Positions 4,415-61,926 of a DNA stretch of 64,000 nt are shown in pieces. Made by a program: the position numbers and the translations under genes. How positions within the stretch are numbered: position 1 is the first letter of the stretch; each line of letters begins with the position of its first letter. Under the pieces are notes generated by a model. It was not told the DNA's origin. It searched no databases and saw only the letters and a program-made list of their open reading frames with translations. The stretch is from the NCBI RefSeq assembly GCF_056712565.1, contig NZ_CM160072.1; one strand, 5' to 3'.

Positions 4415-5068
4415 TTAATCTGTCGCGTCTCGCCATTCGCCATTGGCAAGATTATCCAAAGAGTAATCCCCCATCGCATAGCGAATCAGTCGCAGCGTGG
4501 GGAAACCAACATGGGCGGTCATGCGGCGCACCTGGCGATTACGTCCCTCATATAAGGTGATCTTCAGCCAGCTGGTGGGAATACTTTTGCGCTCACGAAT
4601 TGGTGGATTCCGCGGCCATAACCACGCGGGTTCTTCAACCAGCTCCGCGCCTGCGGGCAGGGTAGGGCCATCATTTAAGGTTACGCCATTGCGCAAGGCT
4701 TCAAGTGCGTCTTGTGTGGGAATACCTTCCACCTGCACATAATAGATTTTTCCGGTGCGTTTACCCGGCTGGGTTAAACGCGCCTGCAACGCGCCGTTAT
4801 TGGTCAGCACCAGTAACCCTTCGCTGTCGCGGTCGAGACGACCTGCCGCATACACCCCCTGAACCGGGATGAATTCTTTTAATGTTTTGCGTCCGGCTTC
4901 ATCGGTGAACTGCGGAAGAACATCGTAGGGTTTATTGAACAGGATCACACGCGTGGGCTGGTTTTCAGGTTTACGCCTGGTAGAACGTTGCGAGCTGAAT
5001 CGCTTAACCTGGTGATTTCTAAAAGAAGTTTTTTGCATGGTATTTTCAGAGATTATGAATTGCCGCAT
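4415..5068 (-). CDS. rluE: 23S rRNA pseudouridine synthase RluE
   Basis: 217 aa ORF; RsuA/RluE family motifs ([17 protein letters not shown]); conserved position upstream of icd. Confidence 0.88.
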
Positions 5069-5239
5069 TATAGCCTAATAACGCGCATCTTTCATGACGG
5101 CAAACAATAGGGTAGTATTGACAAGCCAATTACAAATCATTAACAAAAAATTGCTCTAAAGCATCCGTATCGCAGGACGCAAACGCATATGCAACGTGGT
5201 GGTAGACGAGCAAACCAGTAGCGCTCGAAGGAGAGGTGA

Positions 5240-6490
5240 ATGGAAAGTAAAGTAGTTGTTCCGGCACAAGGCAAGAAGATCACCCTGCAAAACGGCAAAC
5301 TCAACGTTCCTGAAAATCCGATTATCCCTTACATTGAAGGTGATGGAATCGGTGTAGATGTAACCCCAGCCATGCTGAAAGTGGTCGACGCTGCAGTTGA
5401 GAAAGCCTATAAAGGCGAGCGTAAAATCTCCTGGATGGAAATTTACACCGGTGAAAAATCCACACAGGTTTATGGTCAGGACGTCTGGTTGCCTGCTGAA
5501 ACCCTTGATCTGATTCGTGAATATCGCGTTGCCATTAAAGGCCCGCTGACCACTCCGGTTGGTGGCGGTATTCGCTCTCTGAACGTTGCCCTGCGCCAGG
5601 AACTGGATCTCTACATCTGCCTGCGTCCGGTACGTTACTATCAGGGCACTCCAAGCCCGGTTAAACACCCTGAACTGACCGATATGGTTATCTTCCGTGA
5701 AAACTCGGAAGACATTTATGCGGGTATCGAATGGAAAGCAGACTCTGCCGACGCTGAGAAAGTGATTAAATTCCTGCGTGAAGAGATGGGCGTGAAGAAA
5801 ATTCGCTTCCCGGAACATTGCGGTATCGGTATTAAGCCGTGTTCGGAAGAAGGCACCAAACGTCTGGTTCGTGCAGCGATCGAATACGCAATTGCTAACG
5901 ATCGTGACTCTGTGACCCTGGTGCACAAAGGCAACATCATGAAGTTCACCGAAGGCGCGTTTAAAGACTGGGGCTACCAACTGGCGCGTGAAGAATTTGG
6001 CGGTGAACTGATCGACGGCGGCCCGTGGCTGAAAGTTAAAAACCCGAATACCGGCAAAGAGATCGTCATTAAAGACGTGATTGCTGATGCATTCCTGCAA
6101 CAGATCCTGCTGCGTCCGGCTGAATATGATGTTATCGCCTGTATGAACCTGAACGGTGACTACATTTCTGACGCCCTGGCAGCGCAGGTTGGTGGTATCG
6201 GTATCGCCCCTGGCGCAAACATCGGTGACGAATGCGCCCTGTTTGAAGCCACCCACGGTACTGCGCCGAAATATGCCGGACAGGACAAAGTAAACCCAGG
6301 CTCTATTATTCTCTCCGCTGAGATGATGCTGCGCCATATGGGTTGGACTGAAGCGGCTGACCTGATTGTTAAAGGTATGGAAGGCGCAATCAATGCCAAG
6401 ACCGTAACCTATGACTTCGAACGTCTGATGGAAGGCGCTAAACTGCTGAAATGTTCAGAGTTTGGTGACGCGATCATCAAGAATATGTAA
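5240..6490 (+). CDS. icd: Isocitrate dehydrogenase (NADP); 3' ~165 bp is the prophage-adjacent copy of the att duplication
   Basis: 416 aa [41 protein letters not shown]...; classic Icd. Confidence 0.95.
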
Positions 6491-11595: not shown

Positions 11596-11728
11596 TTTTT
11601 GGGACTCCTGGCTGATTAAGTATGTCGATAAGGCGTTTCCATCCGTCACGTAATTTACGGGTGATTCGTTCAAGTAAAGATTCGGAAGGGCAGCCAGCAA
11701 CAGGCCACCCTGCAATGGCATATTGCAT
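11564..11728 (-). CDS. cIII: Anti-FtsH regulator CIII
   Basis: Hand translation gives [54 protein letters not shown] (54 aa); below the 60 aa ORF-track cutoff. Confidence 0.85.
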   Translation of the reverse strand: MQYAIAGWPVAGCPSESLLERITRKLRDGWKRLIDILNQPGVPKNGSNNYGYPD

Positions 11729-11800
11729 GGTGTGCTCCTTATTTATACATAACGAAAAACGCCTCGAGTGAAGCGTAATTGGTATGCGGTAACGCCGCGC

Positions 11801-53749: not shown

Positions 53750-53913
53750 TGCTGCGCCATATGGGCTGGACTGAAGCCGCAGACCTGATTGTTAAAGGTA
53801 TGGAAGGTGCAATCAACGCGAAGACCGTAACCTATGACTTCGAACGTCTGATGGAAGGCGCTAAACTGCTGAAATGTTCAGAGTTTGGTGACGCGATCAT
53901 CAAGAACATGTAA
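53750..53913 (+). pseudogene. icdC: Displaced icd 3' fragment (icdC-like) = right copy of att duplication
   Basis: Encodes ...[53 protein letters not shown] with no upstream icd body; repeat of 6327..6490. Confidence 0.88.
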
Positions 53914-53966
53914 TCTCTACATGTGTTAAATATTGAAACGGGCGTATAACACGCCCGTTGTTTTTA
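53750..53966. repeat. Right copy of icd 3'-end direct repeat (attR side)
   Basis: See 6327..6541; includes a copy of the icd terminator hairpin. Confidence 0.85.
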
Positions 53967-57840: not shown

Positions 57841-58107
57841 ATGCTTGAAGATACTACTATTCATAATGCAATATCTGATAAAGCGTTATCAAGTTACTTT
57901 CGTAGTTCAGGTAATTTGTTAGAAGAAGAGTCTGCTGTGTTAGGGCAGGCTGTGACCAATTTAATGCTTTCAGGCGATAATGTTAATAATAAAAATATTA
58001 TCTTAAGTCTGATACACTCCCTGGAAACAACAAGTGATATTCTCAAAGCTGATGTGATTAGAAAAACACTGGAAATCGTGTTGCGATACACAGCTGATGA
58101 TATGTAA
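57841..58107 (+). CDS. ariR: AriR (YmgB) acid-resistance/biofilm regulator
   Basis: 88 aa [49 protein letters not shown]... Confidence 0.85.
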
Positions 58108-58219
58108 CTTTTAATTATAAAGTATAAGTTTATAGAAAACTCATTCATCTTATTTTTGTCTGTCGCTTTAGACTATACACAGCATAATTTTATTGGATCA
58201 CTATTCCTGCGAGGCTGAC

Positions 58220-58468
58220 ATGAATAATTCAATCCCAGAGAGATTTATTTTTCAATGTGCTTTGTTTAAAAATCTCGAGAGGGAGGTGTTCATGACACAT
58301 GGATATGTTGATAGTCATATTATTGCTCAGGCTTTACGCTTGCGTTTAAAAGATGAGACCAGTGTTATTCTTTCTGATCTCTATCTGCAAATCTTGCAGT
58401 ACATTGAAATGCATAAGACTACACTAACGGATATCATTATTAATGACAGGGAATCTGTGCTCTCTTAA
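58220..58468 (+). CDS. ymgC: YmgC
   Basis: 82 aa from MNNSIPERFIFQCALFKNLEREVFMTHGYVDSHIIAQALRLRLKDE... Confidence 0.75.
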   Translation: MNNSIPERFIFQCALFKNLEREVFMTHGYVDSHIIAQALRLRLKDETSVILSDLYLQILQYIEMHKTTLTDIIINDRESVLS

Positions 58469-58807
58469 AACTTGAGTAAGGTTTTTGAATAAACATCAGC
58501 TGTATCACTATGCTGATGCAAAGTGAGCATTTCAGGCGTTATGCTTTCTTAATATATCCGCAATATCAGAGGGCAAACAGGAATGGAGAGCGCTCGTTTT
58601 CCATTCTTGACGCCTGATATCCCGCCTAATTTGTTTAATTCTGCCTACATTGTGCTAAAAAATTAATAGGCTAGATGAAGTTGGAGAAAATTTTATCTTC
58701 GGCGTGGATATTTGTGATGCTCTCTACCATGCTCTCTGTAGACCCCAGCGCGAGCGAATGAACGTCTCTTTAGCTTCTACAGACTTATCGATAAAGGCTT
58801 TGGGATT

Positions 58808-59659
58808 TTGATATTTATTCTGTTAATCGCCTGCGCCGCTGCCTTCCTGCTTGATAGGTATTTCAATAAAAGCGCAACGCCTGAAGAGATCCTGCGACGG
58901 GCTATAAATAATGGGGAGATCGTCCCTTTTTACCAACCTGTGGTAAATGGTCGGGAAGGGACATTGCGGGGAGTTGAGGTGTTAGCCCGCTGGAAACAAC
59001 CTCACGGTGGATATATATCACCCGCGGCATTTATTCCACTTGCTGAAAAATGCGGATTAATCGTTCCGCTTACGCAAAGCCTGATGAATCAGGTTGCCAG
59101 ACAGATGAACGCTATCGCGAGTAAACTGCCGGAAGGTTTTCATATTGGGATTAATTTTAGCGCCTCGCATATTATTTCGCCGACGTTTGTCGACGAGTGC
59201 TTAAATTACCGTGACAGTTTTACCCGCCGCGATTTAAACCTTGTTCTGGAAGTCACCGAGCGTGAGCCATTAAATGTTGATGAAAGTCTGGTTCAGCGGT
59301 TGAACATTCTGCATGAAAATGGTTTTGTCATCGCGCTGGATGATTTCGGTACTGGTTACTCAGGGCTTTCTTATCTGCATGACTTGCATATTGATTATAT
59401 CAAAATTGATCATAGTTTCGTTGGCCGCGTCAACGCAGACCCAGCATCAACCCGAATTCTGGATTGTGTATTGGATCTGGCGCGTAAACTTTCGATCAGT
59501 ATCGTCGCTGAAGATGTCGAAACGAAAGAACAATTTGACTATCTGAACCAAAATAATATCACATTTCAGCAGGGTTATTATTTCTATAAACCTGTTACAT
59601 ACATCGACCTGGTCAAGATTATCCTTTCTAAACCGAAGGTGAAGATTGTGGTTGAGTGA
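58808..59659 (+). CDS. pdeG: EAL-domain c-di-GMP phosphodiesterase (PdeG/YcgG-like), apparently lacking the N-terminal sensor region
   Basis: 283 aa ORF with one N-terminal TM helix and EAL domain (EVLARW...LEVTEREPL...DDFGTGYSGLSYL...KIDHSFV); only ~340 bp of non-coding DNA upstream. Confidence 0.7.
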   Translation: MIFILLIACAAAFLLDRYFNKSATPEEILRRAINNGEIVPFYQPVVNGREGTLRGVEVLARWKQPHGGYISPAAFIPLAEKCGLIVPLTQSLMNQVARQMNAIASKLPEGFHIGINFSASHIISPTFVDECLNYRDSFTRRDLNLVLEVTEREPLNVDESLVQRLNILHENGFVIALDDFGTGYSGLSYLHDLHIDYIKIDHSFVGRVNADPASTRILDCVLDLARKLSISIVAEDVETKEQFDYLNQNNITFQQGYYFYKPVTYIDLVKIILSKPKVKIVVE

Positions 59660-59790
59660 AAATTGATCAGCAAGGCCATGGTGCGGTGTAATTATAGACA
59701 GCTAATTAGCTCGTTGCCTCTTGTTACTATTGTTCATTCTTTTGTTTGCTATAATTGTGTGAAAGTTTTGACTGGATTGCCATTAGTAGC

Positions 59791-60009
59791 ATGAACAATA
59801 GTAATAATCTGGATTATTTCACTCTCTATATCATCTTTTCCATTGCATTTATGCTGATCACTCTCCTGGTCATCCTTATTGCAAAACCCAGCACCGGGCT
59901 GGGAGAAGTGCTTGTGACGATAAATTTGCTTAATGCCCTGGTTTGGCTGGCGATCAATCTGGTTAATCGATTAAGGGAAAGACTCGTCAGCCACAGGGAT
60001 CAGCACTAA
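59791..60009 (+). CDS. ymgF: YmgF inner-membrane protein
   Basis: 72 aa from MNNSNNLDYFTLYIIFSIAFMLITLLVILIAKPSTGLGEVLVTINLLNALVWLAINLVNRL... Confidence 0.8.
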   Translation: MNNSNNLDYFTLYIIFSIAFMLITLLVILIAKPSTGLGEVLVTINLLNALVWLAINLVNRLRERLVSHRDQH

Positions 60010-60406
60010 TCTTTCAGTTTCTCACTGCCAGTATGCGGCTGAATGGGTTGCTGGCAGTGAACCCCTGGATCATTGAAGGAAAGGAATTATTGCACAAATA
60101 GTTGTCAACCCTGGTGTTATCACAGTTGTTTTATATATCAGTGAAATAATTTCCATGGCAACTGTTGATAATTTTGATGTCGAAGAGTTATTTGTTAAAC
60201 AAAATAGTTACCCCAAAGTGATCAATGTCATGAAAATAAGCTAAAAATGATAATGCTGGCTTATTTATCATTTAAATATTGTCGCTGTTTATCTATTTAA
60301 ATTTCTTGTGCTTTTGTTTTTATCTTTGCCTTCCGTTTTGGTAATCTGAACTCATAGGTTATTTGACCAGGAATGTTTGTTAATCCAATGAATGGATGGT
60401 TAATCT

Positions 60407-61926
60407 ATGAAACTGAAAAAACTCCCCGGATTTAGTTTAGGACTTATTGCTCTGGCGGTGGGTAATGCATATGTAACGCAATTGTTGGATATTTATAGTA
60501 TAATTTCCTATATAACCGATGAAGAATCACCGATTGAAATCAAAAATAATACTTCTACAAGTAATGGGGAGTATCTAATCACTTAAGACGAAAGCCATGC
60601 TGTGAAAGTGGATGACGGTGTAACTGGATATATACATAATGCCAGTGTGATGACTAGTGGTGATGGATCTTATGGTATTTCTGTTGATAGCCAAAACAAA
60701 GTATTATATATAAGCGATAGCAATATTAAGACGCTCTGAAAGCGTATCTGACAAAGAAAATGGAGGGATAACAGCCAGCGCAGTAGTCAGTGAATTTGGT
60801 GGCACCATCGTTATGAATGGTGATAATTCAGTCGAGACGAGGGGGCATATTCAGCGGGACTTTTAAGTCAGATTAATGATTCTGGGACTGTGGAAAATAA
60901 CACCCGTCTTGAAACCACAGATAAAACGAACATTGTTACCTATGGGGAAAAATGCAGTAGGAGTTCTTGCATGTTCAAGTCCTGGAGAGTCTCGAACATG
61001 TGTCGATGCTGTAGATGATGAAGTTTGTGATTCTAACAGTTACGAAGTTATTAGCCGTGCTGATTTAAAAATGAATGGTGGTTCCATAACAACTAATGGT
61101 ATTAATAGCTATGGTGCTTATGCTAATGGGAAAAAAGCATATATTAATTTAGATTATGTGGTACTTGAAACTGTGGCTGATGGAAGTTATGCAGTTGCTA
61201 TTCGACAAGGTAACATTGATATAAAAAAGTTCTATTACAACAAATGGCACTAAAGCCCCCATTGCAAAAATATACAATGGTAGAGAGTTATTTTTTTCCA
61301 ATGTCACTTCAGAATCAACAGAAACGCCTACCCCCGTCCTGCGACCCGAAGCTGGCAGTTACGTCGCCAACCTGGCAGCCGCTAACACTCTTTTTGTTAT
61401 GCGTCTGAACGATCGTGCAGATGAAACGCGCTATATCGATCCTGTAACTGAACAGGAGCGTTCAAGCCGATTTTGGCTACGTCAAATTGGCGGGCATAAT
61501 GCCTGGCGTGACAGCAACGGACAGTTGAGAACGACCTCGGCACAGGCCATCTGGATGGGCGTCGATCATAATGTGCACACGGAAGCCAATGGCTCACGTA
61601 TTGAGAATGACGCAAATAACAATATCCAGACCCGACTTGGTTTCCACACCTTTATTCGTACTCAGGAGAAAAACAGCGGTCCGCACGGTGACGACTTTGA
61701 ACCTTTTGTTGAAATGAACGGGATCCATAACAGTAAAGATTTTGCTGTCTCAATAAACGGTGTGAAAGTTGAACAAGCCGGGGCGCGTAATCTGGGGGAA
61801 ATTAAACATGGCGTAAATGGCAATCTGAATCCTGCGGCCAGCGTCTGGGGTAATGTGGGCGTGCAGCTGGGTGATAATGGCTACAATGACAACGCAATGA
61901 TGGTGGGCCTGAAATATAAGTTCTGA
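60407..61926 (+). pseudogene. ycgH: Disrupted autotransporter gene (ycgH-like), multiple frameshifts and stops
   Basis: Signal-peptide-like start MKLKKLPGFSLGLIALAVGNA then several in-frame stops; later fragments 60876..61253 and 61399..61926 end in an autotransporter beta-barrel terminus (...MMVGLKYKF). Confidence 0.65.

Follow-up and report, generated by a model that had tools for sequence, protein, structure and literature searches.

The sensor-less ycgG2 allele of pdeG in B2-type Escherichia coli: a truncated EAL phosphodiesterase gene that has probably kept its function

When a signalling enzyme is found without its sensor, it must be asked whether the remaining part is a decaying remnant or a working protein that no longer responds to its signal. 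This question is raised by a short pdeG (ycgG) gene in the window, by which we refer to the whole 64,000-nucleotide stretch of DNA that was analyzed. The gene is the published ycgG2 allele, also known as c1610 and YcgG(B-11870), and has already been described and studied experimentally. It agrees with the definition of ycgG2 given in PMC6385356, as it has a 283-aa product, a TTG start and no sensor, and is carried by B2 ExPEC strains. Our preferred reading, which we hold with a probability of about 0.8, is that the allele arose through one old deletion and encodes a TTG-started, signal-blind TM2+EAL enzyme whose function was kept.

The truncated gene and its product

In the window, the neighbourhood follows the E. 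coli order bluR-bluF, ycgZ-ymgA-ariR-ymgC, pdeG, ymgF and ycgH. Positions 58100-59800 are 100% identical to the B2-type strains 536, S88, IHE3034 and APEC O1 and to the type strain ATCC 11775. The position between ymgC and ymgF, together with the high identity to K-12, identifies the gene as the pdeG (ycgG) ortholog. The features considered are:

58220..58468, + strand: ymgC, the final gene of the upstream ycgZ-ymgA-ariR-ymgC cluster (coordinates from the strain 536 RefSeq annotation, 100% identical here)
58469..58762, + strand: the portion of the ymgC-pdeG spacer that was kept, homologous to positions 4998-5287 of the K-12 locus (L002)
58758..58811, + strand: 17-codon upstream ORF (uORF; MNVSLASTDLSIKALGF, then stop) across the junction, with a TGA that overlaps the TTG start (TTGA)
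58763..58765, + strand: deletion junction, CGT standing for 671 bp of K-12 (from the alignment)
58766..58807, + strand: former pdeG codons 211-224 (LFSFYRLIDKGFGI), now untranslated leader (from the K-12 alignment)
58808..59659, + strand: ycgG2 ORF (truncated pdeG), 283 codons from a TTG start, then the stop codon
58808..58852, + strand: residues 1-15, the distal TM2 helix without its first three residues, FGI (by hydropathy)
58886..59593, + strand: EAL domain, residues 27-262 (by Pfam)
59513..59515, + strand: codon 236, GAT (Asp), within the EGVE motif; GGT in other alleles (Gly, K-12 G460)

The window was compared to the K-12 locus by BLAST and by global alignment. Two collinear blocks were obtained, one joining window positions 58000-58762 to L002 4529-5287 and the other joining 58766-60100 to L002 5959-7293. 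The 671 bp at L002 5288-5958 are missing from the window, where they are replaced by the 3 bp CGT, the breakpoint position being ambiguous by up to 3 bp. The missing segment comprises 41 bp of the 5' leader before the pdeG ATG and exactly codons 1-210. K-12 PdeG is a 507-aa protein with a CSS-motif domain at residues 31-217 and an EAL domain at residues 251-486 (Pfam), and the parts lost from the product are TM1, virtually the entire periplasmic CSS sensor and, at the start of TM2, three residues. Residues 1-224 of this full-length protein, of which the window protein is the ortholog by synteny (ymgC on the 5' side, ymgF on the 3' side), have no counterpart in the window product; in the part that was kept, 894 bp long, the nucleotide identity is 97.4% and 7 residues differ. 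The original prediction had assumed a K-12 protein of around 500 aa with a periplasmic sensor and had proposed that this sensor was deleted here; the alignment bears out both points, the two proteins being 507 and 283 aa long and codons 1-210 being gone. The block at 58100-58762 is 93% identical to K-12 and, in the comparison of B2 with K-12, the ymgC-pdeG spacer is less conserved (93%) than the coding remnant (97.4%).

The ymgC stop (58468) and the TTG are separated by 339 bp. The original prediction of about 340 bp of non-coding upstream DNA was thus right as to length, although only about 297 bp are intergenic or junction sequence, while 42 bp are the former pdeG codons 211-224. No + strand ORF of at least 40 aa appears for this gap in the program-made ORF list. 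The spacer also holds an inverted repeat at 58581-58606. In K-12, its arms (GAATGGAGAG/CTCTCCATTC) pair perfectly in a stem of 10 bp, whereas the window copy has decayed, and there is no T-run after it.

That the ORF encodes a 283-aa EAL protein, as had been predicted, was confirmed by the ORF itself and by Pfam, and hydropathy agrees with the single TM helix of that prediction. The product matches the Pfam EAL profile (PF00563) with E=1.5e-65 and 221 bits (cut-off 31.3) over profile positions 2-236 of 236. No match to the CSS-motif domain (PF12792) was found by Pfam in the window protein, which lacks the TM1 and the periplasmic CSS domain, with its two conserved cysteines, that mark CSS-type phosphodiesterases (PDEs) such as PdeB, PdeC, PdeD, PdeG and PdeN. 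Residues 1-15 (MIFILLIACAAAFLL) are its sole strongly hydrophobic segment, scoring 3.06 (15 aa) and 2.07 (19 aa) on the Kyte-Doolittle scale, as compared to a best value of 1.39 elsewhere in the protein. With 15 of about 18 hydrophobic TM2 residues left at the extreme N-terminus, this segment is probably an N-terminal membrane anchor, as predicted by hydropathy and by comparison with the TM2+EAL fragment of PdeC (PMC5897775).

The EVLAR, DDFGTGYSG, KID and QQGY motifs are present in the product, and the EGVE motif reads EDVE, with the Glu kept and the Gly replaced by Asp. The nearest solved structure is the PA3825 EAL domain of Pseudomonas aeruginosa (PDB 4y9o and 4y8e; for 4y9o, E=8e-66 over residues 22-269), with which the catalytic motifs align, PA3825 having AEGVE where the window has AEDVE. 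Public contigs that encode exactly this 283-aa protein number at least 1,000, those of 536 and IHE3034 among them, and the protein corresponds to ADE89339 (from the IHE3034 record) and ABG69216.

Several observations concern the surroundings. Downstream of ymgF, at 60407-61926, the ycgH autotransporter is split into several short ORFs; B2 annotation lists hypothetical proteins and a frameshifted beta-barrel fragment here, and ycgH is a pseudogene in K-12, too. Far upstream, icd lies at about 5240-6490. A displaced piece of its 3' part, found some 47 kb further downstream at 53750-53964, shares 94% identity with the end of icd. Alignment to the annotated 536 record places between icd and this fragment the sitABCD iron/manganese transporter and a lambdoid prophage with an ompC-like porin, iss and an integrase that in 536 is disrupted by IS100, and the region from icd to the fragment looks like an icd-integrated element. 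The prophages of the window and of 536 are not the same. The window's only gathering-level Rfam match lies within the window prophage, at 11683-11741 on the - strand (Lambda_thermo, the phage CIII thermoregulator, 88.5 bits).

Spread of the deletion and origin of the start codon

The 81-bp junction query was fully matched in 919 of 5,426 complete E. coli genomes (17%), including 536, IHE3034, S88, CFT073 and ST131, while the 671-bp segment was present in 3,992 of the 5,426. With one and the same junction in 919 complete genomes, the deletion is real and not an assembly artefact. As to its direction, a full-length 507-aa gene is carried by E. whittamii, by Escherichia sp. E1V33 and by a divergent genome labelled E. 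coli SCPM-O-B-8794, and Kluyvera gave a full-length match (query residues 1-507). As the outgroup Escherichia carry the full-length gene, the short form is a derived deletion. One could argue, from nothing but the length difference, that the short form is ancestral and that K-12 gained the sensor, or that the window was misassembled. Such a reading is barely credible, however, as CSS and EAL are joined in the full-length genes of the three outgroup Escherichia genomes and Kluyvera, as so many E. coli genomes hold the 671-bp segment, as former codons 211-224 can still be read in frame in the 42 bp before the TTG, and as the assemblies that share the junction are independent.

The carriers fall into two haplotypes, one window-like (at least 99.5% identity, about 467 genomes) and the other 1.7% different, including ST131 strain MNCRE44. 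Given this distance, the deletion is either old or was spread by recombination. In the E. coli collection, 10-12 of the locus matches fall on plasmid-labelled records; these may be elements of the F-prime type, or their labels may be wrong.

A role of IS1 in the B2 deletion was considered, as pdeG is truncated in SL124 and BS15R-A by deletions next to IS1 that arose independently, one ending 7 bp and the other 49 bp from the right breakpoint of B2. At the B2 junction itself, no IS1 remnant was found, only CGT. The surroundings of pdeG, over about 2 kb, have received IS1 repeatedly and look like a hot spot: IS1 lies between ariR and ymgC in ST131 strain MNCRE44 and between the remnant and ymgF in SF-173, and in two further genomes IS1 is annotated under the pdeG match.

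The TTG start corresponds to the K-12 Leu225 codon (TTA in K-12), inside TM2. It has been ascribed to a point mutation that followed the deletion (PMC6385356), an origin that our allele comparison does not support. A chimeric query, in which the full-length left flank is joined to the TTG, gave 100% matches in the annotated full-length pdeG of 7/2, 118UI, 2017C-4173W12 and 104. Subtracting the 919 deletion carriers from the 1,487 records that matched at 99% identity or more leaves about 570 genomes with full-length TTG alleles, and all three Escherichia outgroups have TTG at the Leu225 codon. As TTG is found both in the outgroups and in full-length alleles, the K-12 TTA is the derived state. 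The deletion uncovered a TTG that was already there, and a later mutation was not required. The full-length pdeG genes of 118UI and 2017C-4173W12 are themselves annotated with an internal stop; such stops in full-length alleles indicate that lineages without the B2 deletion have also lost pdeG function, in other ways.

The signals that could serve expression from this TTG are modest. An SD-like AAGG lies at 58794-58797, 10 nt 5' of the start. The promoter scan found no consensus sigma-70 promoter on the + strand of the interval between ymgC and the ORF, a terminator scan and MFE folding of the intergenic region revealed no intrinsic terminator there, and the Rfam scan of the whole window gave no match in or near the pdeG locus. 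Transcription by read-through from ycgZ-ymgABC is possible. The uORF begins at an ATG that is shared by K-12, where, however, it has only 7 codons; the overlap of its stop with the TTG would be compatible with translational coupling.

Function of the remnant and the weighing of alternatives

Reportedly, the earliest comparative description of the allele is that of Povolotsky and Hengge in 2016 (PMC4686209, cited here through PMC6385356). Zlatkov and Uhlin (2019, PMC6385356) named ycgG2 in the NMEC strain IHE3034 and described a 283-aa, 32-kDa, TTG-initiated product. In that study, ycgG2 was translated from the TTG in vitro, native YcgG2 was seen by western blot in wild-type IHE3034 and was gone in the knockout, and the knockout displayed S-fimbria and ferric-citrate phenotypes. 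Overexpressed YcgG2 reduced c-di-GMP-dependent rugosity in V. cholerae, although less than did full-length YcgG, and this assay of PDE activity is indirect (PMC6385356). The IHE3034 gene is the same allele as that of the window, with identical DNA over 58100-59800 and an identical protein.

In UPEC strain CFT073, deletion of c1610 raised FimA and adherence (Spurbeck et al. 2012, PMC3484386), and the knockout was complemented by an active, but not by an inactive, heterologous PDE (PMC3484386). CFT073 c1610 shares the junction, length and D236 with the window allele and differs from it by S124L and two synonymous changes.

Truncated YcgG variants from B-11870 and Tob1 were characterised by the Römling laboratory in 2023 (PMC10459773), where every ST131 was reported to carry a YcgG CSS-domain deletion. 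YcgG(B-11870) reached high levels and repressed the rdar biofilm to a greater extent than full-length YcgG (PMC10459773). This variant is likewise truncated and TTG-initiated, and has S306C, F358Y, E437A, L467F, Y474N and V504I in common with the window, while G460D is missing from its listed substitutions (PMC10459773). In the Tob1 type, represented by strain FAH, another 218 bp are gone, the start codon is ATG, and the product begins with 22 novel residues (MESARFPFLTPDIPPNLFNSAY in FAH) and has no TM segment. FAH lacks window positions 58648-58865, so that the TTG and the TM segment are lost along with the B2 junction. The 985 matches to a Tob1/FAH junction query were discarded as nonspecific, as the 218-bp gap lets BLAST join ordinary B2 pieces, and a 285-aa protein (P0154) was rejected as a Tob1-type candidate, being a contig-edge fragment of a full-length allele.

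How such a protein could work is suggested by other CSS-type PDEs, in which a periplasmic disulfide formed by DsbA/DsbB keeps a low-activity state, and in which the reduced form is active and is cut by DegP/DegQ to a membrane-bound TM2+EAL fragment. For PdeC, this fragment was reported in 2018 to insert in the membrane, to form dimers by way of TM2 and to have high activity, while the isolated EAL domain had none (PMC5897775). The window product has the same layout, namely one TM segment and the EAL domain of a CSS-type PDE. The PdeC fragment is, however, derived from a paralog, is made post-translationally and begins before TM2, whereas the window form is encoded directly and begins three residues inside TM2.

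In the preferred reading, a single old 671-bp deletion, common to B2-type E. coli, took the last 41 bp of the 5' leader, TM1 and nearly all of the CSS redox sensor. The remaining frame is read from the ancestral Leu225 TTG, and the 32-kDa product keeps the EAL domain complete behind a short hydrophobic N-terminus. With the CSS domain gone, disulfide control by DsbA/DsbB and processing by DegP/DegQ could presumably not act and, because CSS-based control could not act, the product would resemble, by analogy to PdeC, a genetically fixed TM2+EAL fragment of CSS-type PDEs. Its activity would then be governed by expression level and turnover only. As a tentative extension, which we consider doubtful, the deletion may hard-wire the always-on TM2+EAL state, with G236D as a later, compensatory attenuation and with termination-reinitiation at the uORF aiding translation from the TTG.

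The substitution G236D (G460D in K-12 numbering) adjoins the catalytic Glu, is derived and is specific to the window's haplotype. At this site, Gly is found in 146 of 149 cluster representatives (50% identity clusters) and Asp in none of the 149, and Gly is also present in PA3825-EAL and the Escherichia outgroups. The Asp codon occurs in 312 genomes, every one of those inspected having the deletion; D236 is present in 536, IHE3034, S88 and CFT073, and absent from ST131 and FAH. No mention of G236D was found in the literature searched. The substitution would weaken, without abolishing, the activity of the product of the window haplotype, and it may explain why the IHE3034 protein was weaker, and the B-11870 protein stronger, than full-length YcgG. 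The differing hosts and expression levels explain this contrast equally well.

The frame is uninterrupted over the 283 codons of ycgG2, unlike the disrupted frame of a pseudogene, and is likewise open in the MNCRE44, UPEC 26-1 and CFT073 alleles. We do not use this openness as evidence of selection, as, by a rough estimate, about 20 substitutions are likely to leave a frame stop-free by luck. Instead, we counted changes among the deletion alleles, polarised with full-length alleles. The ratio of 8 nonsynonymous to 10 synonymous changes, as compared to the 77% nonsynonymous expected under neutrality (654 nonsynonymous and 195 synonymous sites), gives p=0.003 and a dN/dS of about 0.24, although the sample is small and recombination may have imported some changes. 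Subject to these reservations, the remnant departs from the neutral evolution of a pseudogene, and the counts suggest that purifying selection still acts on it after the deletion. In full-length alleles, the ratio is 7:26 and dN/dS about 0.08, some threefold below that of the deletion alleles, a difference that is not significant (Fisher p=0.11). The window lineage by itself, with 4 nonsynonymous and 3 synonymous changes (p=0.20), is indistinguishable from neutral.

Several of these points weigh against the preferred reading: the gene is labelled by RefSeq/PGAP as a pseudogene ("incomplete; missing N-terminus"), with a feature that begins at the equivalent of window position 58766, no + strand promoter was found, the TTG is weak and its SD modest, Asp replaces a near-invariant Gly, the published PDE activity is below that of the full-length protein, and dN/dS is about threefold higher, though not significantly. 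One could thus see a decaying pseudogene, in which the RBS, the start and the membrane-targeting region were deleted and an ORF that is not yet broken has no significant role. The label, the weak start signals with no promoter found, the change within the catalytic motif and the 4:3 ratio of the window lineage would fit this view, as would the frequent IS1 insertions at the locus and the further losses seen in FAH (TTG and TM segment gone) and SCU-485 (internal stop). We nonetheless consider a pseudogene unlikely. A western blot showed native protein in IHE3034, which carries the identical allele, PDE activity was observed in trans, the CFT073 knockout phenotype was complemented by a heterologous PDE, nonsynonymous changes pooled after the deletion are depleted (p=0.003), and the ORF is open in both haplotypes despite their 1.7% divergence. 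The SCU-485 stop may, moreover, be a sequencing error, as ymgA and ariR are frameshifted in the same assembly. As ycgG2 is expressed and active and gives knockout phenotypes, the RefSeq label "pseudogene" understates it.

A different view would hold that the protein is a non-catalytic trigger that binds c-di-GMP or another protein, as do degenerate EAL proteins, its hydrolysis having been disabled by G236D. The proximity of this residue to the catalytic Glu and the reduced PDE readout in the published assay point in this direction, and E. coli has precedents for non-enzymatic EAL proteins in YdiV and in BluF, which is encoded next door. We regard this as very improbable, given that all other catalytic and metal-binding residues are conserved (c1610 table in PMC3484386), that D236 alleles still gave a PDE-type phenotype in V. 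cholerae, and that only an active heterologous PDE, and not an inactive one, complemented the CFT073 knockout. The original prediction had left it open whether sensor loss would uncouple the activity from its signal or inactivate the gene; the published work on the identical IHE3034 allele favours uncoupling with retained function over inactivation.

Implications for c-di-GMP signalling in pathogenic E. coli

The significance of the sensor loss has been recognised since 2012-2019, and what is added here beyond the published literature is modest, namely the ancestral TTG, the G236D haplotype and the probable purifying selection after the deletion. In about 900 complete genomes, a gene that is expressed has been given the wrong label, that of a pseudogene, by automated annotation. 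The extra G-to-D change is carried by IHE3034, CFT073 and 536, which served as model strains in functional studies, and is missing from ST131 and B-11870. More generally, the allele represents a redox-gated PDE that would have been turned signal-blind in a large pathogenic lineage, which bears on c-di-GMP signalling in extraintestinal pathogenic E. coli.
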